Positions 2,924-12,741 are shown, numbered from the stretch's first letter. The stretch: 24,000 nt of DNA from Curtobacterium sp. MCJR17_020 (GCF_003234365.2 NZ_CP126260.1:2829172-2853171), one strand, 5' to 3'. Numbers and translations are program-made. The notes: generated by a model from the sequence alone, not told the origin.

Positions 2924-3700
2924 TCAGGCGGCCGGGGACTCCACGGTCTCGATCGTGCCGGTCGCTCCGGGGTGCTCGTAGTGCGCGCGCACCAGGATCG
3001 GACGGTGGTCGGAGATGCCCGCCGGCAGGGTCTCGACGCCGGCGATGTGCAGCCCGACGCTCGTCGCGAAGTCGAAGTGGCCCGTGAACTTGCGGTAGCG
3101 CAGGTACGTCGGCTGGTCGGACAGCGACAGTGCGAACCCGCCCTGCTCGATCTTGCGACGCAGGTTCGTCTGGAACCAGGGGTAGTTGAAGTCGCCGACC
3201 ATGACCGCGGGGACGTCCTTCGCGAGCTCGCGGAGGAACTGGTGCGCCGCCTCGATCTGCTTGCGGCGCAGGGAGTTCGTCGCGGTCAGCGGTGAGGCGT
3301 GGAACGAGGCGACGACGACCTCGGCGTCGGCCTCGGTGTCGCGCAGGTGCATCGCGATGAGCCGTTCGTGCGCGGGTGCGAGGACCCGGTCGTGCAGGGA
3401 CTTCTGCAGCGAGTGGATGCTGAAGTCCTGCACCTCGAAGCGGTCGTCGCGCTTGTAGATCGCGAGTCCGAGGCGGTTCGTGCGGGTCGACGCGGCGAGC
3501 GAGAGCCCACCGATCGACGGGGCCAGGTCGTTGCTGTCGCACTCCTGCACGCAGAGGACGTCGGCGTCGGAAGCCTCGGCCAGGGCGGCGAGTTCACCGT
3601 TCGCGGTGTGCTCGCGGAGGTTGTAGCTGACGACCCGGAGGGCAGTGGGCGGCACGCCTGCGTCGGTGGCGATCGTGCTCTGCTGTTCTGGCGCGGCCAT
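2924..3700 (-). CDS. Endonuclease/exonuclease/phosphatase (EEP) family protein
   Basis: 258 aa. LRVVSYNLRE near the N-terminus, VLCVQE, VMVGDFNYPW and SDHRPILV are the canonical EEP catalytic blocks. The SD-like aggaagg sits upstream of the ATG. Confidence 0.85.
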   Translation of the reverse strand: MAAPEQQSTIATDAGVPPTALRVVSYNLREHTANGELAALAEASDADVLCVQECDSNDLAPSIGGLSLAASTRTNRLGLAIYKRDDRFEVQDFSIHSLQKSLHDRVLAPAHERLIAMHLRDTEADAEVVVASFHASPLTATNSLRRKQIEAAHQFLRELAKDVPAVMVGDFNYPWFQTNLRRKIEQGGFALSLSDQPTYLRYRKFTGHFDFATSVGLHIAGVETLPAGISDHRPILVRAHYEHPGATGTIETVESPAA

Positions 3701-3864: not shown

Positions 3865-5274
3865 TCAGGCGCGGACCCGGCGGGCGGGGCGGACGGTGTC
3901 CCCCGCTGTGCGGCTCATCAGGATGCCCTCCACGCACGCGACGGCGAGCAGCGCCGCGATCACCCAGAACGCGACGGAGTACGGGCCGTCGCCACCGAGC
4001 CCGCCGGCCGCGCGGATCACGACCGCGGCGACGGCGACACCGAACCCGGCGGCGGTCTGCTGCAGCGTCGACGAGAGCGTGTTCGCCGGGGTCATGTCGG
4101 CCTGCTCGACGTCGGCGAAGGCGATGGTGTTGTACGCCGTGAAGCCGACGGAGCGGGCGGCGCCGCTGACGACGAGCAGGACCGCGAGCAGCCAGAACGG
4201 CGTGTCCTCGGTCATGAACGCCATCGCGACGACGGTCAGCGCCGCGATCGCACTCGACACGATGATCACCGGGCGGTAGCCGAACCAGCGCAGGAACGGC
4301 GTCGTCATCGGCTTGATGCCGAGGTTGCCGACGAAGACCCACAGCACGGCGGACCCGGCGAGCACGGCGCTCCAGCCCCAGGCGTCCTGGAACAGCAGCG
4401 GGAGCACGAACGGCACCGCGGAGACCGCCAGTCGGAACAGGCTGCCGCCGGCGTGCGACACCCGGAACGTCTCGAGGCGGAACGCCTCGAGCCCCATGAT
4501 CGGGTGCGGCGCCCGGCGGAAGTGCCGGATCGCGAACCAGCAGCAGACGGCACCGACGACACCGGACACCACGACGGCCAGGACCGGGATGACGTCGAGC
4601 GCGAGCAGCGACGCCATCACGACGAGCGACCCGAGGCCGAAGCACGCGAGCAGCGATCCGAACCAGTCGAACGGCACGCGCTGCGCGGCGCGCTCCTGCG
4701 GGACGAGCACGAGCGCGGCGACGAACGCGATGACGCCGAGCGGGATGTTGATCAGGAAGATCCAGTGCCACGTCAGGGTGTCGACGAGCACGCCGCCGAT
4801 GAACGGGGCGATGATCGGCGCGGCCAGGGCTGGCCAGGTGAGGATCGCGATGGCCGTGACGAGCTGCTCGCGGCCGGCGCTCCGGAGCACCACGAACCGG
4901 CCGACGGGCACCATGAGCGCACCGCCGAGCCCCTGCAGGATGCGCCAGAGCGTCAGGTCGACGAGGCCGGTCGACATCGCGCAGAGTGCCGACGCGATCG
5001 TGAAGAGCGCGATCGCGCCCGCGAAGACGGTGCGGGACCCGATCCGGTCGGTGAGCCAGCCCGAGACGGGGATGAACACCGCCAGGGTGACCAGGTACGC
5101 GGTGATCGCGACGCCGACGGCGGCCGAGTCGACACCGAGGTCACGCCCCATCGCGGGGGCCGCGGTCGCCAGGATCGTGCCGTCGAGGAGCTCCATGAAG
5201 AAGGTCCCCGCCACGAGCACGGCGACCGCCGTGCTGCCCGTCCGCCGTCTGGGTGTCGTCATCGTCGTCGCCAT
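3865..5274 (-). CDS. MFS transporter (DHA2/EmrB-like N-terminal motif)
   Basis: 469 aa and highly hydrophobic. FMELLDGTILATAAPAMGRDLG and PVSGWLTDRIGSR are MFS motifs. It is divergent from the deaminase operon. Confidence 0.88.
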   Translation of the reverse strand: MATTMTTPRRRTGSTAVAVLVAGTFFMELLDGTILATAAPAMGRDLGVDSAAVGVAITAYLVTLAVFIPVSGWLTDRIGSRTVFAGAIALFTIASALCAMSTGLVDLTLWRILQGLGGALMVPVGRFVVLRSAGREQLVTAIAILTWPALAAPIIAPFIGGVLVDTLTWHWIFLINIPLGVIAFVAALVLVPQERAAQRVPFDWFGSLLACFGLGSLVVMASLLALDVIPVLAVVVSGVVGAVCCWFAIRHFRRAPHPIMGLEAFRLETFRVSHAGGSLFRLAVSAVPFVLPLLFQDAWGWSAVLAGSAVLWVFVGNLGIKPMTTPFLRWFGYRPVIIVSSAIAALTVVAMAFMTEDTPFWLLAVLLVVSGAARSVGFTAYNTIAFADVEQADMTPANTLSSTLQQTAAGFGVAVAAVVIRAAGGLGGDGPYSVAFWVIAALLAVACVEGILMSRTAGDTVRPARRVRA

Positions 5275-5341
5275 GTCGCGTCAAAGGCTATGCCCGGTGC
5301 CGGGTCGCGGGGGGATCGTGTCGGGAGGTTCCGCGATCGTG

Positions 5342-5356
5342 TTTTGCATTGCAGAA
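5342..5356. promoter_or_regulatory. Candidate operator, site 1: 15-bp near-palindrome TTTTGCATTGCAGAA
   Basis: An AT-rich island in GC-rich DNA. 12 of 14 non-central positions are self-complementary, and 13/15 are identical to site 2 at 11379-11393. It lies about 70-80 nt upstream of both divergent starts (5274 and 5434). Confidence 0.5.
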
Positions 5357-5433
5357 TGATGCGCACCAGCGCGTTGCCCTGCGGGTCCGCCGAGCGGGAG
5401 CGTGGAGGCTGCGCGACGACAGGAGGCTCACCG

Positions 5434-6654
5434 ATGACCGACGCCGACACGACGACCGGGACCGTGACCACGAAGGGCGCCTGGGACCCGGCAGCGGGCA
5501 CTCCGCACCACGTCCTCGACCACGCCCACCTGCCCGTGATGACCCTGCGCGAGTCCGCCCTGGCGAACAACACCGCCGTCATGCAGGCCTACGTCGACCG
5601 CCACGGGCTGCTGTTCGCGCCGCACATGAAGACGCACATGGCGCCCGACCTCGCCGCGCGGCAGATCGACGCCGGAGCGTGGGGCGTGACGGTCGCGTCC
5701 GTGCAGCAGGCGATGGTCGCGTGGGAGCACGGGGTGCACCGGATCCTGGTCGCGAACGAGGTCCTCGACCCCGCCGGCCTCGCCTGGCTCGCGTCCCGGC
5801 GCACGGTCGACCCGGACGCCGACGTCCTCTGCTACGTCGACTCCGCCGCGGGCGTCACCGCCGCCGTCGCCGCGCAGGGCACCGTGGCCGGCGAGCTGCA
5901 CGTCCTGGTCGAACTCGGGTTCCCGGGCGGGCGCACCGGGGTCCGCTCCCCCGACGACGCGCGTGCACTCGCGCTGCTCGCCCACGACGCCGGGCTCGTG
6001 CTCCGCGGTGTCTCCGGGTACGAGGGCGGGCTGCCCGGCGTCGACGCTGCCCGCGAGTACGTCGCCGGTGTGCTCGACGTCGCCGAGGACGTCCGCGGGC
6101 TCGTCGACGGTCGCGGGCTCCTCAGCATGGGCGGCAGCGCCTGGTTCGACGCCGTCGTGGACGCCGTGGCGCGACGCACCGACGACCTCGACGTGCTGCT
6201 GCGGTCGGGTGCGTACCTGACCCACGACGACGGCTTCTACGCCGAGCGCACGCCCTTCGGCCGACACCCGGCCGAGGGCTCGCTCGTCGCCGCGATCGAG
6301 GTCTGGGGACGCGTGACGTCCTGCCCGGAGCCCGGGCTCGCGTTCGTCGCCGTGGGCAAGCGCGACATCTCCTTCGACGAAGGGCTGCCGGTGGTGCGGT
6401 CGGTGCGGCCGGCCCTGCCAGCAGGCCCGTCGGGCGCCACACAGGTCGTCCCACCGCCCGGGGCGGTCACCGTCACCCGCCTCGACGACCAGCACTGCTA
6501 CCTCGCGCTGGCGGACGGCGCCCCCGAGCTGACGCCCGGCGACGTCGTCGTGTTCGGCATCTCGCACCCCTGCACGGTGTTCGACAAGTGGCGGCAGGTG
6601 CACGTCCTGGCCGACGACGACACCGCGCTCCGGACGATCGCGACGTGGTTCTGA
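5434..6654 (+). CDS. Fold-type III PLP enzyme, D-serine dehydratase-like / putative amino (sugar) acid ammonia-lyase
   Basis: 407 aa from ATG 5434, preceded by aggagg at 5421-5426. The PLP-lysine motif APHMKTHM has its Lys codon at 5629-5631. A C-terminal GISHPCTVFDKW provides a His-x-Cys pair as in DSD1-type D-serine dehydratases. The upstream part of track ORF 3829..6654 is antisense to the MFS gene and not coding. Confidence 0.8.
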   Translation: MTDADTTTGTVTTKGAWDPAAGTPHHVLDHAHLPVMTLRESALANNTAVMQAYVDRHGLLFAPHMKTHMAPDLAARQIDAGAWGVTVASVQQAMVAWEHGVHRILVANEVLDPAGLAWLASRRTVDPDADVLCYVDSAAGVTAAVAAQGTVAGELHVLVELGFPGGRTGVRSPDDARALALLAHDAGLVLRGVSGYEGGLPGVDAAREYVAGVLDVAEDVRGLVDGRGLLSMGGSAWFDAVVDAVARRTDDLDVLLRSGAYLTHDDGFYAERTPFGRHPAEGSLVAAIEVWGRVTSCPEPGLAFVAVGKRDISFDEGLPVVRSVRPALPAGPSGATQVVPPPGAVTVTRLDDQHCYLALADGAPELTPGDVVVFGISHPCTVFDKWRQVHVLADDDTALRTIATWF

Positions 6655-7508
6655 TGCGCGCGACCACCGCGACCACCGCGGCCCCGGTGCCGACGGACGG
6701 CGACGGTCCTGCCCGGAACGCCGCACTGTCCCTGCGTCGCGGGCTCCGCCTGCTCGACTGCATCGCCGACCGGACCCGCAGCGGCGCGGTGTCCGTCAGC
6801 CTGTCCGTGCTGGCCGCCGAGCTCGGCACCTCGAAGTCGACGGTGCTCCGCCTGACGGCCCCGATGCTCGAGAACGACCTGCTGCGCCGCACCCCGGACG
6901 CCGGGTTCACGCTCGGCCTCGGCGCCCTGCTGCTCGGGCAGAGCTACCTCGAGGGGATCGACCTGCGCTCCGCCGCCGCACCGTTCCTGCGTCGCACGGC
7001 GGAGCAGACCGGGCTGACGTGCCACCTCGTCGTGCCGGACGGCACCGACATCGTCTACGTCGACAAGGTCGAGACCCGCGGCACCGTCCGCATGGGCTCC
7101 CGGATCGGGAACCGCCTGCCGATGCGGAACACGGCGTCCGGCAAGGCGATCGTCGCGTTCGGCGAACCGGAGCTGCTCGACCGGGTGCTCGCCGAACCGG
7201 CCCAGGTCATGACGGAGCACACCATCACCGACGACGACCGCTGGCGGCACGAGGTCGACCGCACGCACGGACGGGGCTACGGCATCGACGACCGCGAGAA
7301 CGAGCCGGACATCCGGTGCGTCGCCGCCCCGGTGTTCGACCACGCGAACCAGGTGGTCGGCGCGATGAGCATCTCCGGGCTGGCCTCGCGGTTCCCCGCA
7401 GCGGCGGTCCGCGAACTCGGCGACGGCGTCGTGCGGACCGCCCACGAGATCTCCGTCGCGCTCGGGTCCTCGTCGGCGCAGCTCGCCCTCGCACGGGGTG
7501 CCCGGTGA
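6654..7508 (+). CDS. IclR-family transcriptional regulator
   Basis: 284 aa. N-terminal wHTH (LSLRRGLRLLDCIA...LSVLAAELGTSKSTVLRLT) and a C-terminal IclR effector domain (YVDKVET, VRMGSRIGNRLPMRNTASGKAIVAF, GYGIDDRENEPDIRCVAAPV). The ATG overlaps the deaminase TGA by 1 nt (TGATG). Confidence 0.9.
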   Translation: MRATTATTAAPVPTDGDGPARNAALSLRRGLRLLDCIADRTRSGAVSVSLSVLAAELGTSKSTVLRLTAPMLENDLLRRTPDAGFTLGLGALLLGQSYLEGIDLRSAAAPFLRRTAEQTGLTCHLVVPDGTDIVYVDKVETRGTVRMGSRIGNRLPMRNTASGKAIVAFGEPELLDRVLAEPAQVMTEHTITDDDRWRHEVDRTHGRGYGIDDRENEPDIRCVAAPVFDHANQVVGAMSISGLASRFPAAAVRELGDGVVRTAHEISVALGSSSAQLALARGAR

Positions 7509-8482
7509 CCGGCTCGGTGCTGACGTTCGGCGAGACGATGCTGCTCCTGACCGGGCGCGACGTCGGCGCGGTGCCGGACCTGGAGCACATGCGGGTGGAC
7601 ACCGGCGGCGCCGAGAGCAACGTCGCGATCGGCCTGGTCCGCGCCGGGGTGCCGGCCACGTGGATCGGTCGGGTCGGCACGGACCCCGCCGGCGACCGGG
7701 TCGCCGCCGACATCGGTGGCGAGGGCGTCGACGTGCTCGCGGTCCCCGACGCCGAGCGCTCCACCGGCATCATGATGAAGGAGCGGCTGCTCGACGGCCG
7801 CACCCGGGTGACCTACCACCGCCGTGGTTCGGCCGGCTCGGCGTTGGCCGCGACGGACCTTCCCGCAAGCGTCGTCGAGACCGCTGCGCTCGTGCACGTC
7901 ACCGGGATCACCCTCGCGCTCTCCGAGTCCGCACACGACACCGTGACCGCGGCGCTCGACCGGGCGGCCGCCGCCGGCGTGCCGGTGTCGTTCGACGTCA
8001 ACCACCGGCCGAAGCTCATCGGCGCCGACGCTGCACGAGACCGGTACCGGGCCGTCGCAGCACGGTCCGCCGTGGTGTTCGCCGGCGACGACGAGGCCCG
8101 GCTCGTGCTCGGCCGCGACGACCAGGACGACGACGAGGAGTCACTCGCGCACGAGCTCGCCGCGCTGGCACGGGGCCGCGCGGTCGTGAAGCTCGGCTCC
8201 CGCGGTGCCGTGGCGTCGATCGACGGCGTGTTCGTCCGTCGGCCCGCGACCCCGGTGCGCGTCGTCGACCCGGTCGGTGCCGGTGACGCGTTCGTCGCGG
8301 GCTGGCTCGCAGCGAGCCTGGGTGGAGCGGGCGCCGCCGAGGCACTCGACCGGGCCGCCGACGCCGGCGCACTCGCCTGCACCGTCGAGAGCGACTGGCG
8401 CCGTCCGGACCCAGCCGCGTTGCACCACGCCCCGGACCCGTCGGACACCGACCACACCGTGCACGACCACGTCGACCGCTGA
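7505..8482 (+). CDS. kdgK: 2-dehydro-3-deoxygluconokinase (PfkB family)
   Basis: 325 aa. VLTFGETML, GGAESNVAIGL and the PfkB signature DPVGAGDAFVAG are present. The GTG overlaps the IclR stop (GTGA). It has an unusual His/Asp/Pro-rich C-terminal tail. Confidence 0.82.
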   Translation: MTGSVLTFGETMLLLTGRDVGAVPDLEHMRVDTGGAESNVAIGLVRAGVPATWIGRVGTDPAGDRVAADIGGEGVDVLAVPDAERSTGIMMKERLLDGRTRVTYHRRGSAGSALAATDLPASVVETAALVHVTGITLALSESAHDTVTAALDRAAAAGVPVSFDVNHRPKLIGADAARDRYRAVAARSAVVFAGDDEARLVLGRDDQDDDEESLAHELAALARGRAVVKLGSRGAVASIDGVFVRRPATPVRVVDPVGAGDAFVAGWLAASLGGAGAAEALDRAADAGALACTVESDWRRPDPAALHHAPDPSDTDHTVHDHVDR

Positions 8483-8537
8483 CGCCGTGTCTCCCCACAC
8501 CGTGTCCGCCGAACACCACCACTCGAGGAAGCGCACC

Positions 8538-9197
8538 ATGACGAACGACACCACGAGCACCGAAGAGCACGCCGCCGCACGGCACCGTCACCAGGCCGGA
8601 CCGGCGATCGCGATCCTCCGCGGCGGCACCGGCGACCACGTCGAGGACGTCATCGCCACCCTGGTCGACTCCGGCGTGACGGCGATCGAGATCACCACGA
8701 ACACCCCGCGCTGGCGCGAGGGCATCGCGTGGGCGGTCGATCGGTACGGTTCCGCGGCCTCCATCGGCGTCGGCACGGTGCTCGACGTCCGCCAGCTCGA
8801 CGAGGCCGCCGCTGCCGGTGCCTCGTTCGCCGTCAGTCCCCACCTCGACGCCGAACTCGGCGAGCGCGCGCACGAGCGTGGCCTCGGCTGGTACCCCGGT
8901 GCCGCGACCCCGACCGAGATCGTCCGCGCGTGGCGGCTCGGTGCCCGTGCGGTGAAGGTGTTCCCGGCGGCGCAGCTCGGCGGCCCCGCGTTCCTGAAGC
9001 AGGTCCTGGCACCGCTCGACTTCATCGACGTCATCCCGACCGGTGGCATCGGGGTCGACGACGCCCCGGACTACCTGGCCGCCGGTGCGGTCGCCGTCGG
9101 ACTCGGGTCCCCGCTCGTCGGCGACGCGCTGACCTCGGGCGACCTCGACGCCCTGCGGGAGCGGGCCGGCCGCCTCGTCGCGGCGCTCGACCGATGA
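8538..9197 (+). CDS. eda: 2-dehydro-3-deoxy-phosphogluconate (KDPG/KHG) aldolase
   Basis: 219 aa. AILRGG, TAIEITTNTP, the Schiff-base lysine block AVKVFPA, and PTGGI. SD-like gaggaa lies upstream of ATG 8538. Confidence 0.85.
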   Translation: MTNDTTSTEEHAAARHRHQAGPAIAILRGGTGDHVEDVIATLVDSGVTAIEITTNTPRWREGIAWAVDRYGSAASIGVGTVLDVRQLDEAAAAGASFAVSPHLDAELGERAHERGLGWYPGAATPTEIVRAWRLGARAVKVFPAAQLGGPAFLKQVLAPLDFIDVIPTGGIGVDDAPDYLAAGAVAVGLGSPLVGDALTSGDLDALRERAGRLVAALDR

Positions 9198-10840
9198 CCG
9201 GGCAGCAGCCCACCGGCGAGCAGTCCAGCGGCAGCGTCGTCCTGCTGCGCGGCGGGTCGGTTTTCGGTGCGGACGGGGCCCAGGTGCGCGCCGACGTCCT
9301 CGTCACCGACGCCGTCATCCGCGCCGTCGGTGCCGACCTGGACCCCCCTGCCGACGCGCACGTGATCGACTGCGACGGACGACTGGTGCTCCCGGGCTTC
9401 GTGGACGCGCACTCGCACGCCGGGTCGCTCGTGTTCGACGAGGGCGTGCAGCTCGCGCTCCTGCGCCAGGGCGTGACCACGATCGTGACCGGACAGGACG
9501 GCGTCGGACCGGCACCGGGCGACGGTTCGTACGCCGACACGTACTTCGCCGCCATCGACGGTCCGCACCCGACGTACCGCGGTGGCGGGGTCGACGGCCT
9601 GCTGACGACCTACGACGGCACGACCCCGGTCAACGTCGCGACGCTCGTGCCCGCCGGCACGGTCCGTCACCAGGTCATGGGCGACGACCCGGGGCCGGCG
9701 GACAGCGCGCAGCTGGCCGCGATGCAGGGGCTCGTGCGCGACGGCCTCGCAGCCGGCGCGGTCGGTCTGGCGACGGGGCTCGACTACGTCCCCGGTCTGT
9801 TCGCCGGCACCGCCGAACTCGCGGCACTCTGCACCGAGGTCGCTGCCGTCGACGGCCTCTACGTGTCGCACATGCGCGGCGGTTACGAGGGGAACGCCCG
9901 CGCCGGGCTCGACGAGATCGCCGAAATCGTCCGCGCGTCGGGCGTCCGGGCGCACGTCTCGCACCTGCACGCGCCCGTCGACCTCGCGGTGACCGTACTG
10001 GCCGCGCTCGAGGCGGAGGGCGCCCCGATGTCGTTCGACGCCTACCCGTACTCGCGCGGCTGCACGATCCTGTCGATGCTGCTCCTGCCCGCGGCCCTCG
10101 CCCGCCCCGGCACCGAGGACCTCGCCCACGCCGTCGCCGACGACGAGGGTCGCGCTGCGGTCCGGGCGGCCGTGCTCGACCGTGTGCTGTCCCGCGCCGA
10201 CCTCGGCACCGGATGGGCGGAGCAGATCACGCTGTCCCACGTGCCCGCCGCCGAGTTCCACGCGCTGCAGGGCCGCACCCTGGCCGACGCCGCCGAGGCG
10301 ACCGGGACGGACCCGGTGGACCTGGCCCTCGACGTCCTGGTCGACTCGGCACTGCAGGTCACCGCCGTGATGCGCGTGCCCCGTCCCCGGACCGCCGACG
10401 ACCTGGCACCGCTCTTCCGGCTGCCCGGGCACACGGCCGGTTCGGACGGCATCTTCGTGGGCACGCACCCGCACCCGCGGGCGTACGGCACGTTCGCGCG
10501 ATACCTGCAGGACTTCGCCCGCCCGGGGCTCCTGACCTGGCGCGAAGCCTCGCGGCACCTGTCCACCACCGCGGTCGAGCGACTCGGCCTCGGTCGACGG
10601 GGCGCAGTGGCCGTCGGGGCGGTCGCCGACCTCGTGGTCGTGGACCCCGATCGGGTCGCGGCGCGGTCGTCCTACGACGAACCGATGCGCCTGGCCGAGG
10701 GCATCGACGACGTCCTCGTCGCCGGTGTCCCCGTACTGGCCGACGGCGCTCTGACGCACGCGACCCCCGGTGCCGGGCTGCGTCGCCACCCGGGCCGGAT
10801 CGACCACGAGCAGGGAGCAGCGAGCACCGGGGGACGGTGA
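9194..10840 (+). CDS. N-acyl-D-amino-acid deacylase (D-aminoacylase) family amidohydrolase
   Basis: 548 aa. The ATG overlaps the eda stop (ATGA). It has the metal motif PGFVDAHSH (H73/H75), the family-typical GVTTIVTGQDG block, and YVSHMR. Length and architecture match D-aminoacylases. Confidence 0.82.
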   Translation: MTGQQPTGEQSSGSVVLLRGGSVFGADGAQVRADVLVTDAVIRAVGADLDPPADAHVIDCDGRLVLPGFVDAHSHAGSLVFDEGVQLALLRQGVTTIVTGQDGVGPAPGDGSYADTYFAAIDGPHPTYRGGGVDGLLTTYDGTTPVNVATLVPAGTVRHQVMGDDPGPADSAQLAAMQGLVRDGLAAGAVGLATGLDYVPGLFAGTAELAALCTEVAAVDGLYVSHMRGGYEGNARAGLDEIAEIVRASGVRAHVSHLHAPVDLAVTVLAALEAEGAPMSFDAYPYSRGCTILSMLLLPAALARPGTEDLAHAVADDEGRAAVRAAVLDRVLSRADLGTGWAEQITLSHVPAAEFHALQGRTLADAAEATGTDPVDLALDVLVDSALQVTAVMRVPRPRTADDLAPLFRLPGHTAGSDGIFVGTHPHPRAYGTFARYLQDFARPGLLTWREASRHLSTTAVERLGLGRRGAVAVGAVADLVVVDPDRVAARSSYDEPMRLAEGIDDVLVAGVPVLADGALTHATPGAGLRRHPGRIDHEQGAASTGGR

Positions 10841-10890
10841 CGCAGCGCAGCGAGGTGCCTCGGTGAGGCTTCACACAGCCTGTACCGACG

Positions 10891-11292
10891 TCACGAAGTG
10901 CTCGGCAGCACCGCCACGACGTCGATCTCGACCAGGATGTTCGCCAGGTGGGACTGCACGGTGGTGCGGACGGGGTACGGCTGCGAGAAGTGCTTCGCGT
11001 ACTCCTCGTTGAAGGCCGGGAAGTCGCGGTCGGAGTGCTCGAGGTGCACCGTGGACTTCACGACGTCGTCGAGCGTTGCACCGTGCTCGGCCAGCACCGC
11101 CGCGACGTTGGCCAGCACCTGCGCGGTCTGACCGGCCACGTCGTCGGCGATCGCACCCGTGGCGGGGTCCTGCGGGCCGAACCCGGCGGTGTAGATGAAG
11201 CCGTTGGCGACGATGCCCTGGCTGTAGGGCCCGGCGGGCTTCGGGGCGTTGTCGGTCACGATGGCGGTCTTCGGCGCGTTGGAGTTCGGCAC
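10891..11292 (-). CDS. ridA: RidA/YjgF-family reactive enamine/imine deaminase
   Basis: 133 aa. PKPAGPYSQG, FIYTAGFGPQDPATG, VVKSTVHL and RTTVQS...VEIDVVA are hallmark YjgF/RidA blocks. Confidence 0.9.
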   Translation of the reverse strand: MPNSNAPKTAIVTDNAPKPAGPYSQGIVANGFIYTAGFGPQDPATGAIADDVAGQTAQVLANVAAVLAEHGATLDDVVKSTVHLEHSDRDFPAFNEEYAKHFSQPYPVRTTVQSHLANILVEIDVVAVLPSTS

Positions 11293-11378
11293 GGTTCCTC
11301 CTGGGGTTCGTCGGTCGTCGGCGGAGACTCCAGGCTAGGCGGACGCCACGCGGTGGGGCCGACCACCCGACCAGCGCA

Positions 11379-11393
11379 TTCCGCATTGCAGAA
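11379..11393. promoter_or_regulatory. Candidate operator, site 2: 15-bp near-palindrome TTCCGCATTGCAGAA
   Basis: 12 of 14 non-central positions are palindromic (TTC-N-GCA-N-TGC-N-GAA). It shares the 11-mer GCATTGCAGAA with site 1. It lies 87-101 nt upstream of the ridA start (11292) and 107-121 nt upstream of the GT-C gene start (11500). Confidence 0.5.
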
Positions 11394-11499
11394 CGCAGGG
11401 CGGGCCTGGCGTCCGGGGTGCCGCACCGACCACCCAGGTGGAGGGCGACTACCCTGGCCGGGTGCCGTCCTCCCTGCCCGAACGCCGCGGAGCGCGCGC

Positions 11500-12741
11500 G
11501 TGAGCCGGCTCGACGGCGCGGTCACCGGGACCGCCGCGACCGGACGGCGCCGCGCACTCGACACCGTCACCTCGCTGCCGGCGTGGGCGGCCGTGCTGCT
11601 CGTCTGGACCGGCGGCCGGATCGTGTCGACGCTGTGGCTGGCACTCGCGTACCCGCTCATCGGACGGGCGATGCCGGACAACGCCATCTGGGGCAACGGG
11701 CACGGCTTCACGGCGTTCCTCACCGCCTGGGACGGCCAGTACTACGAGCAGATCTCGCTGCACGGGTACCCCGACGTGCTGCCGGTCGACGCCGTCGGCA
11801 ACGTGGCGCAGAACGCCTGGGCCTTCCTGCCGGCGTTCCCGTTCACGATCCGGATGCTCACCGCCTCGACCGGGCTGCCGTTCACCGTCGGCGCCCCGCT
11901 CATCTCCGTGCTGGCCGGTCTGCTGGCGACCTACCTGCTGCACCGCCTGGTCCGCGACCGTGCGGGCAACGCCGCGGCGATGTGGGCCGTGTTCTTCTTC
12001 ACGTGCGGGCCGCTGTCCTTCCTGCTGCAGGTCGGCTACGCGGAGAGCATGTTCCTCGCGCTCACGTTCGGCGCACTGCTCGCCCTGGAGCGGCGCCGGT
12101 ACGGGCTGCTCACCGTGCTCGGGGTCGCTGCTGCCTTCACCCGTCCGGGCGCATTGGCCGTCCCGCTCGTGCTCGGGGTCATCGCCCTGGTGCGGTGGGT
12201 CCGGGCTCGCCGTGAGACCGGGCGGGTGCTCGACACCTTCCCACTCCGCGAGCAGGTGCAGGTCGTGGCCGCCGGTGCCGTGATGGTGGTGGCGGGTCTC
12301 GCGTGGCCGGTCATCGCGTCGCACGTGACCGGCACGCCGAACGCCTACCTCGAGACCGAGATGTCGTGGTGGGTGAACTTCATCGGCCGCGTGGACTTCG
12401 TGCCCTTGTCGCCGTGGTTCCTCATCGCCGGGCGCTGGCTCGGCGTCGGTGGGATCCTGATCGTGGTGTTCCTGCTCGTCGGGTTCCCGATCTGGCTGCT
12501 CCGCCGGTCGACGAAGCGGCTCGGGTCGACGACCGTGCTGTACTCGGCCGCCTACGCGCTCTACATCTTCGCGGTGTCGCTGCCGATGGCCTCGACCCCG
12601 CGGCTGCTCATGCCCCTGGCGCCGTTGTTCGGCTCGCCGGAGCTCGTCGCCAAGCCGTGGATGCGGTGGACGTTCGTCACCGCGGCGCTGGCCGGGCAGC
12701 CGGTACTCGTCGCGGTGCTCTGGCTGCTCGGGCCTCCGTAG
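11500..12741 (+). CDS. Integral-membrane GT-C type glycosyl/mannosyltransferase (PIG-V / Mannosyl_trans2-like)
   Basis: About 413 aa from GTG 11500 (ggag lies 8 nt upstream; the start is uncertain). It has multiple TM helices and the WDGQYYEQISLHGYP motif typical of PIG-V-like mannosyltransferases. The upstream part of track ORF 10948..12741 is antisense to ridA. Confidence 0.7.
   Translation: MSRLDGAVTGTAATGRRRALDTVTSLPAWAAVLLVWTGGRIVSTLWLALAYPLIGRAMPDNAIWGNGHGFTAFLTAWDGQYYEQISLHGYPDVLPVDAVGNVAQNAWAFLPAFPFTIRMLTASTGLPFTVGAPLISVLAGLLATYLLHRLVRDRAGNAAAMWAVFFFTCGPLSFLLQVGYAESMFLALTFGALLALERRRYGLLTVLGVAAAFTRPGALAVPLVLGVIALVRWVRARRETGRVLDTFPLREQVQVVAAGAVMVVAGLAWPVIASHVTGTPNAYLETEMSWWVNFIGRVDFVPLSPWFLIAGRWLGVGGILIVVFLLVGFPIWLLRRSTKRLGSTTVLYSAAYALYIFAVSLPMASTPRLLMPLAPLFGSPELVAKPWMRWTFVTAALAGQPVLVAVLWLLGPP

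Follow-up and report, generated by a model that had tools for sequence, protein, structure and literature searches.

Activators of the IclR family such as PobR and PcaU of Acinetobacter and MhpR of E. coli have a palindromic operator upstream of the -35 element. Across the family, the binding motifs of IclR regulators have been assigned to two types, group 1 being described by GKTYCRYW3-4RYGRAMC with the subgroups GTT-11-AAC and WTT-11-AAW (Suvorova & Gelfand 2021, PMC8222616). The experimentally studied operator of C. glutamicum PcaR reads GTTCGC-N3-GCGAAC (Table 1 of PMC8222616). Moreover, the supplement to that survey lists a predicted actinobacterial group with TGTTCTGCAnTGCAGAACa (Kfla_2394/5, AAur_4092 and Sros_7725/6), including tandem sites 15 bp apart.

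In Pseudoalteromonas (prydzensis), the oxidised-chitin monomer GlcNAc1A (N-acetyl-D-glucosaminate) is processed by the ong pathway via OngB, OngC, OngD, which is a RidA protein, and KdgK. OngD is essential alongside the other three, and the regulator OngR is a repressor of the MurR/RpiR type that is encoded mid-operon (PMC9537276). The main text of the OngB paper (PMC12017989) makes no mention of Actinobacteria, Streptomyces, Gram-positives, a regulator or a gene cluster. We found no literature that names both IclR and Curtobacterium.

The DNA analysed here, referred to as the window, is a stretch of 24,000 nt (G000:C1:2829172-2853171) from the genome of Curtobacterium sp. MCJR17_020, which comprises 4,031,094 bp at 70.8% GC. 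The genus Curtobacterium is abundant in leaf litter and in the phyllosphere. Gene calls were based on third-position GC, and gene names on Pfam and NCBIfam. The gene context given by an earlier reading of the window, made from the sequence alone (the sequence-only reading), was confirmed for the MFS, dehydratase-like, RidA and GT-C-like genes (Table 1). Between the MFS and the GT-C-like gene lies a catabolic cassette in which an IclR-family regulator is encoded, and on either side of it we found one copy of a 15-bp dyad. According to our proposal, these two dyads are in all likelihood the cognate operators of this regulator, and the only two in the genome, with binding predicted from the comparisons described below.

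Table 1. Genes, proposed operators and putative promoter elements of the window (positions counted from its first nucleotide)
Feature	Position	Strand	Basis and remarks
EEP-family gene	2924-3700	-	
DHA2-type (efflux-like) MFS gene	3865-5274	-	outside the cassette
Proposed operator site 1, TTTTGCATTGCAGAA	5342-5356	.	dyad centre 5349
Putative -35 of the dehydratase operon, TTGCCC	5374-5379	+	GTTG at fixed operator offset in 39/41 loci, variable spacer
Putative -10 of the dehydratase operon, GAGCGT (pattern nAnCGT)	5398-5403	+	49 bp from dyad centre in 39/41 loci
PLP-dependent D-serine-dehydratase-like enzyme, OngC-like deaminase candidate, first gene of the operon	5434-6654	+	Pfam D-ser_dehydrat, Ala_racemase_N
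IclR-family regulator, proposed binder of both sites	6654-7508	+	Pfam HTH_IclR and IclR_C, both above cut-offs
PfkB sugar kinase, 2-keto-3-deoxygluconate-kinase-like (kdgK)	7505-8482	+	Pfam/NCBIfam
KDPG/KHG aldolase (Eda)	8538-9197	+	Pfam/NCBIfam; ATG 8538, GAGGAAG upstream
Amidohydro_3 N-acyl-D-amino-acid deacylase homologue, OngB-like	9194-10840	+	Pfam/NCBIfam
RidA enamine/imine deaminase, OngD-like	10891-11292	-	convergent, separate transcription unit with its own proposed operator
Putative -10 of ridA, TAGCCT on the minus strand	11332-11337	-	conserved TA(G/C)(C/G)nT
Proposed operator site 2, TTCCGCATTGCAGAA (TTCTGCAATGCGGAA in ridA orientation)	11379-11393	.	dyad centre 11386
GT-C-like membrane protein gene	start ~11500	+	outside the cassette

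The regulator, a protein of 284 aa, has the make-up of its family (N-terminal HTH_IclR and C-terminal IclR_C domain, ~250-280 aa): it scored 34.0 bits with PF09339 (cut-off 22) and 149.5 bits with PF01614 (cut-off 24), and matched PDB 1mkm at 8.5e-34 over residues 27-271. The best PDB match of the dehydratase-like enzyme is 3gwq, a D-serine deaminase (3e-68). As in the ong cluster, a D-aminoacylase-type deacetylase (OngB type), a D-amino-acid deaminase (OngC type), RidA and a KDG kinase are encoded together, and the regulator gene lies mid-operon right after the deaminase gene. On the other hand, the regulator belongs to the IclR family instead of the MurR/RpiR family of OngR, eda is included, and no transporter or GH20 gene is present inside the cassette, which sets it apart from an ong cluster with its dedicated uptake (TonB receptor, SSS transporter) and GH20 enzyme OngA. 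The amidohydrolase is closer to N-acyl-D-glutamate deacylase (3gip, 7.5e-46) than to PpOngB (9kb1, 1.5e-38), with D-aminoacylase (1m7j, 2e-42) in between, and GlcNAc1A is a candidate substrate.

The sequence-only reading had described the two 15-mers as a pair of near-palindromes and proposed them as operators of the IclR protein. Both are present in the window; read directly off the sequence, they agree with each other at 13 of 15 positions, and each is self-complementary at 12 of its 14 non-central positions. With up to three mismatches allowed, the window holds four matches (two sites on two strands) against 0.24 expected, and none of 100 shuffles of the window reached this number. The 11-mer GCATTGCAGAA, common to both sites, occurs exactly twice in the whole 4.03-Mb genome, namely at sites 1 and 2. 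We also scanned the genome with a symmetrised operator matrix built from 80 Curtobacterium sites, the window's own two being among the 80 (a small circularity). Here, site 2 scored 24.4 bits and site 1 23.9 bits, while the next-best genomic match reached 18.15 bits. A motif scattered over the genome, the outcome named beforehand as speaking against an operator, was found neither by the 11-mer count nor by the matrix scan. The lower matches are located within genes or before dnaB, a ROK regulator or yebC. We rejected them as extra regulon members, as they lack a functional link and score at least 5.7 bits below the two sites, and no third credible target emerged from the genome-wide matrix scan. 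The third-best match, TTCTGCTGTGTAAAA (G000:C1:3864053-3864067, L132:2053-2067), is situated outside the window in the rplI-dnaB spacer, 285 bp before dnaB, and probably represents a chance match.

Among the 24 congeners sampled first, 17 encode an orthologue of the IclR regulator (83-99% identity), and in these the gene order between EEP and PNPOx is completely preserved. That the motif should recur in orthologous clusters was borne out in 41 species-level Curtobacterium loci: site 1 is present in all 41 and site 2 in all 39 that hold ridA, numbers that overstate independence since the compared genomes are kin and the counts not independent trials. In MAFFT alignments of both spacers, the 15-mers form conserved islands in otherwise variable sequence, the operator columns carrying ~2 bits and the flanking columns <0.6 bits. 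Invariant positions are 1, 2, 5, 6, 10, 14 and 15 in site 1 (41 loci) and 1, 2, 4-7, 11 and 15 in site 2 (39 loci). The dyad centre varies freely, and variation in the arms is symmetric, position 3 changing with 13 and position 4 with 12. The half-site can be written as TT(C/G/T)(T/C)GC in a 6-3-6 geometry, and the genus consensus as (G)TTCTGC-AWT-GCAGAA(T). The direct repeat GATCGTGT to the left of site 1 (5314-5321 and 5335-5342), suggested earlier as an auxiliary site, did not withstand this comparison. The window has it, but no relative does, not even the closest one (IclR 99% identical), and both the length and the sequence of this region vary.

The dyad fits the published group-1 palindrome of the IclR family (PMC8222616). 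The left half of site 2, TTCCGC, is an exact match, and the sole systematic deviation is T/C at half-site position 5, where T is found as often as C (TTCTGC vs. group-1 TTYCRY). Further features of group-1 operators are also seen here: both sites lie upstream of an operon adjacent to or containing the transcription factor gene, the distance from the dyad centre to the start codon being 85 bp for the first gene of the iclR-containing operon (site 1) and 94 bp for ridA (site 2), and the footprint in orthologous loci is accompanied by co-occurrence with the factor. PcaR, likewise a regulator of the IclR family that serves a catabolic operon in an actinobacterium, also has a 6-N3-6 dyad and a GTTC start, but differs in the core (CGC vs. 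TGC), in its pathway (protocatechuate) and in belonging to another regulator clade. According to the supplement, the sites of the Kfla_2394/5-AAur_4092-Sros_7725/6 group share with ours the 6-3-6 inverted repeat, the outer TT, the GC/W3/GC core and an autoregulatory location beside an IclR gene; these sites are predictions, likened to the Curtobacterium ones by their motif. In the same source, the adjacent Sros_7725 sites, 15 bp apart, resemble the arrangement that we found in Streptomyces (see below), whereas the Curtobacterium sites are single and not tandem.

Where the cassette is absent, the dyad is absent as well. We searched the strict pattern TTSTGCANNNCRGAA in 70 Curtobacterium genomes and set the matches against the presence of an IclR orthologue. 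At least one match, on the same contig and within a few kb of iclR, was obtained in 49 of the 50 iclR-positive genomes; the sole exception (G016) has degenerate sites at both positions. Only 2 of the 20 iclR-negative genomes (G326 and G005) showed a match, one each, and both are devoid of ridA and iclR. The reversed pattern, used as a control, gave 2 matches in all 70 genomes. Five inspected congeners without the IclR gene also lack this RidA, and their MFS and GT-C genes are directly adjacent and divergent. In these five genomes, no dyad match within five mismatches was detected in the empty junction of 150-430 bp, while the MFS-side and GT-C-side -10-like elements are retained. On the left, homology between empty and occupied loci ends just after CTATGCCCG, ~45 bp left of site 1; on the right, it restarts within or beside the right half of site 2 (TGCACGACGCAGG vs. 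TGCAGAACGCAGG). It follows from this comparison that the unit of insertion or deletion consists of site 1, the five-gene operon, ridA and site 2, with the MFS and GT-C genes as bystanders.

As a presence/absence polymorphism, the block of ~5296-11390 (approximate edges) was found in 50 of the 70 Curtobacterium genomes searched. The five inspected empty-site genomes contain a degenerate relic, TGCACGAC, which is similar to the right half of site 2, an indication that the block was lost by deletion and not gained repeatedly.

At both sites, 49 bp separate the dyad centre from the start of a -10-like hexamer (5349 to 5398 and 11386 to 11337). If these hexamers are real -10 elements, the dyad centre would come to lie at about -61. 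We infer the -35 and -10 assignments, as well as the -61 position, from conservation. Downstream of site 1, GTTG(C/T)CC begins 17 nt and the nAnCGT hexamer 41 nt past the operator in 39 of 41 loci, within a spacer to the dehydratase gene that is conserved in length, but not in sequence. The window promoter would consist of TTGCCC, an 18-nt spacer and GAGCGT, the latter ~30 bp before ATG 5434 and followed by AGGAGG. On the ridA side, the -10-like hexamer begins 41 nt past the operator (49 bp from the dyad centre) in 33 of 39 loci and 40 nt past it (48 bp) in the remaining 6. A scan for E. coli consensus promoters and a terminator scan gave no matches, which for the promoter scan is expected at 70% GC.

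On the outward sides, spacing is loose: the distance from site 1 to the MFS start varies from ~10 to >100 bp across loci, and indels of up to ~40 bp occur on the GT-C side of site 2. The sequence-only reading had assigned the sites to the MFS/deaminase and ridA/GT-C divergent regions. They do lie there, but it is the dehydratase operon and ridA with which they are positionally coupled, and not MFS and GT-C. Regulation of the latter two by the sites was rejected on the grounds of the variable spacing and because both genes, together with their own -10-like elements, are unchanged without the cassette.

Three further readings were discarded. An ECF-type promoter (GGAAC ... CGTT) formed with the right half-site is at odds with the sequence GCAGAAT that many species have in this half, and its spacer would be 2-3 nt too short for ECF consensus spacings. 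An origin of site 2 by wholesale duplication of a ~75-bp promoter does not agree with the in-register identity downstream of the operators, which is 0.36 compared to 0.28-0.35 in shifted registers; agreement between the two downstream regions is confined to a G.CC element and an A..C.TGG element. As to an RNA element, there is no Rfam match in the window, and the inferred start sites would leave the dyads untranscribed.

Outside the genus, IclR homologues with 49-55% identity were found among species-representative genomes in Streptomyces, Nocardiopsis, Streptomonospora, Actinomadura, Lipingzhangella, Pseudonocardiaceae and uncultured Actinomycetota. The dyad recurs beside these distant homologues, in most loci upstream of the leading gene of the regulator's operon. 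In this position, TTNTGCANTGCANAA is seen in Streptomyces, Nocardiopsis, Streptomonospora and two metagenome-assembled genomes, whose IclR homologues are 50-55% identical. The individual dyads read TTCTGCAATGCAGAA in L094, TTTTGCATTGCACAA in L096 and L110, and TTGTGCA(N)TGCACAA in Nocardiopsis and Streptomonospora. In Streptomyces, TTGTGCAATGCGAAA is directly followed by a second dyad, TTCTGTAGTGCAGAT, with the centres 15 bp apart. The Actinomadura locus (L104) shares only the gene set; scanning it revealed no dyad of this kind. A TAnnnT hexamer (TACGTT, TAAGTT, TACATT, TAGGTT or TATCCT) is positioned 40 nt past the first dyad in Streptomyces, Nocardiopsis, Streptomonospora and L094, i.e. in the same layout of operator, ~40 nt and TAnnnT as in Curtobacterium; in L096 and L110, the loci from Pseudonocardiaceae, we found none at this offset.

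The genes that accompany these regulators vary. Deacylase and dehydratase genes are present, in other orders, in four loci (L094, L096, L104 and L110). In L104 and L094, ridA is located on the same strand as iclR and is co-operonic with it, and L104 also carries eda and kdgK. The Pseudonocardiaceae loci add an SSS transporter, from the family of OngIT. Most Streptomyces loci encode a sugar ABC transporter, an M20 hydrolase, an MBL-fold hydrolase and IclR, followed by a 401-aa protein without Pfam match. All members of the clade share the recognition helix KSTVLRL (in Nocardiopsis, KSSVLRL) and the RN..SLRR.L in front of it. It is thus the regulator clade that the motif accompanies, and not any particular target gene, which we consider the strongest argument for the regulator as the binder. 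Uniqueness, footprint, co-occurrence with iclR, recurrence beside distant homologues and the fit to the group-1 motif together support, at the level of sequence, the earlier proposal of an IclR operator pair.

The Streptomyces operon (L105:326-9017 and ~20 others among L095-L128) has a sugar ABC transporter of the Peripla_BP_4 type and the regulator at the operon end; it is preceded by the two adjacent dyads, the TAnnnT hexamer and a strongly conserved leader, CCCCTCTCAACAGACCGGTCCTCACC. In the metagenome-assembled genomes with L096 and L110, the dyad (L096:5491-5505, L110:5418-5432) is found ~23 bp before the start codon of an operon of the SSS (OngIT-like) transporter and iclR. This operon is divergent from a deacylase-dehydratase pair, and a second AT-rich dyad-like element, TCCAATATTGCATTT, adjoins the dyad.

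What emerges from the comparisons is a unique and conserved pair of dyads that is co-inherited with iclR and kept at a fixed distance from promoter-like elements of two transcription units. We propose that a dimer, or a dimer of dimers, of the IclR protein would recognise the 6-3-6 dyad TT(C/G)(T/C)GC-N3-GC(A/G)(G/C)AA. Site 1 would control the dehydratase-iclR-kdgK-eda-amidohydrolase operon, from which it would follow that the regulator is autoregulated, and site 2 would control the separately transcribed ridA. Both sites together would constitute a closed local regulon for an ong-like pathway leading from an N-acyl-D-amino-sugar-acid via the D-amino acid and KDG to KDPG, in which RidA may quench the enamine/imine that the PLP enzyme sets free. 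The effector is presumably one of the pathway intermediates, bound by the C-terminal domain of IclR.

The cassette, which resembles the recently described oxidative-chitin (GlcNAc1A) pathway, hence offers a testable two-promoter regulon with operators predicted at base resolution. Its ridA appears to belong to the pathway functionally, as it co-occurs with the cassette, has the same predicted operator and is co-operonic elsewhere, while the MFS and GT-C genes on its flanks are not part of the pathway. As a compact pair of sensor and operator with a motif conserved across Actinobacteria, the system might find use in biosensors as soon as its effector has been identified. Conceptually, the circuit is not new; autoregulated local circuits of the IclR family, with dyads of the 6-3-6 type, are well known. 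The points of interest are rather ridA with its own copy of operator and promoter, the deeply conserved geometry of the two, and an IclR protein replacing the RpiR-type regulator in an ong-like pathway.

Regarding the sign of regulation, we lean slightly towards ligand-dependent activation from a class-I-like position over repression. A position of about -61 from the inferred starts differs from the classical position of a repressor that overlaps its promoter. It is reminiscent of PobR, PcaU and MhpR, in which the palindrome is likewise found upstream of the -35 of a catabolic promoter with weak core elements; these activators are divergent from their targets, whereas the IclR protein considered here is encoded inside the target operon and its activator role is putative. 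As a tentative working model, which may well turn out otherwise, the whole IclR clade would act as an upstream, ligand-dependent activator at about -61. It would have kept the operator-N40/41-TAnnnT layout from Curtobacterium to Streptomyces and Nocardiopsis. In Actinobacteria from soil and plants, it would control how oxidised or N-acylated amino-sugar acids are catabolised, with IclR in place of the RpiR-type OngR and the convergent ridA held by its own activator-dependent promoter copy. A classical repressor released by an inducer would employ the same protein and the same sites, so that this alternative is nested in the main explanation and concerns the sign only; we regard it as a genuine contender, while stopping short of calling it probable. 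In this form, a tetramer anchored at the dyad would cover the -35 or contact the alpha subunit of RNA polymerase until the intermediate releases the block. The second dyad of Streptomyces would indeed cover about -45, i.e. the -35 region, and the location ~23 bp before the start codon, seen in L096 and L110, is the commonest one for IclR-family sites. In addition, the analogous OngR of Pseudoalteromonas is a repressor encoded mid-operon (PMC9537276), and repressors encoded within the operon that they control are common. The single dyad of Curtobacterium, in contrast, is 18 bp clear of the -35-like hexamer, and its loci show no conserved second box at positions 16-30 past the operator. Furthermore, a spacer of non-conserved sequence whose length is kept exact to one base pair, as seen in several lineages, is more typical of a regulator that contacts RNA polymerase from a given face of the helix, and the core elements of both promoters are weak.

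It has to be considered whether the dyads are bound by a regulator encoded elsewhere, the cassette IclR recognising something else. This would be compatible with the fact that the link between protein and sites is drawn from sequence comparison, and other IclR paralogues exist in the rest of the genome (15 first-look candidates). However, such a regulator should be expected to bind elsewhere in the genome too, and the genome matrix scan revealed no site beyond the cassette. The motif vanishes together with iclR, travels with iclR homologues into differently organised operons of distant taxa, and fits the IclR family consensus; moreover, neither the GC3 gene calls nor Pfam/NCBIfam identified another regulator gene within the cassette. 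We therefore judge this alternative highly unlikely. Even less plausible is that the two copies are relics of insertion or deletion, such as terminal or att-like repeats, without a regulatory role. It is true that they are found at the cassette edges in direct orientation, that empty-junction homology restarts within or beside the right half of site 2, and that the left edge is ~45 bp left of site 1. Pfam and NCBIfam detected no recombinase or transposase among the cassette genes, and the empty junctions are without an intact copy. Conserved arms around a variable centre are the pattern of a dyad bound by protein, the promoter elements lie at a fixed distance, and in distant taxa the motif precedes the first gene of an operon instead of marking both ends.

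Some minor observations concern the promoter regions. In two Curtobacterium genomes (L029 ~8000-8100 in G009, and L031), tandem units of ~15 nt, GGGGTCGAACG(G/A)AC, are inserted between the ribosome-binding site of ridA and its -10-like hexamer; they lengthen the ridA leader and leave the operator-to--10 spacing undisturbed. On the MFS side (5275-5295), a conserved GCTATGCCC on the plus strand (TAGCCT/TAGCAT on the minus strand) is located only ~10 nt upstream of the MFS ATG. Genomes without the cassette have retained this element, which probably acts as the -10 of an MFS transcript with little or no leader. The GT-C-like gene is preceded, at 11450-11455, by a conserved hexamer (TACCCT/TATCGT/TACGCT), which is likewise kept in empty-site genomes and is the probable -10 element of this gene. 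Several species have a GTG ~7 nt past this hexamer, suggesting a leaderless start in these species; in the window, the GTG (11462) is out of frame with the ORF at 11500.
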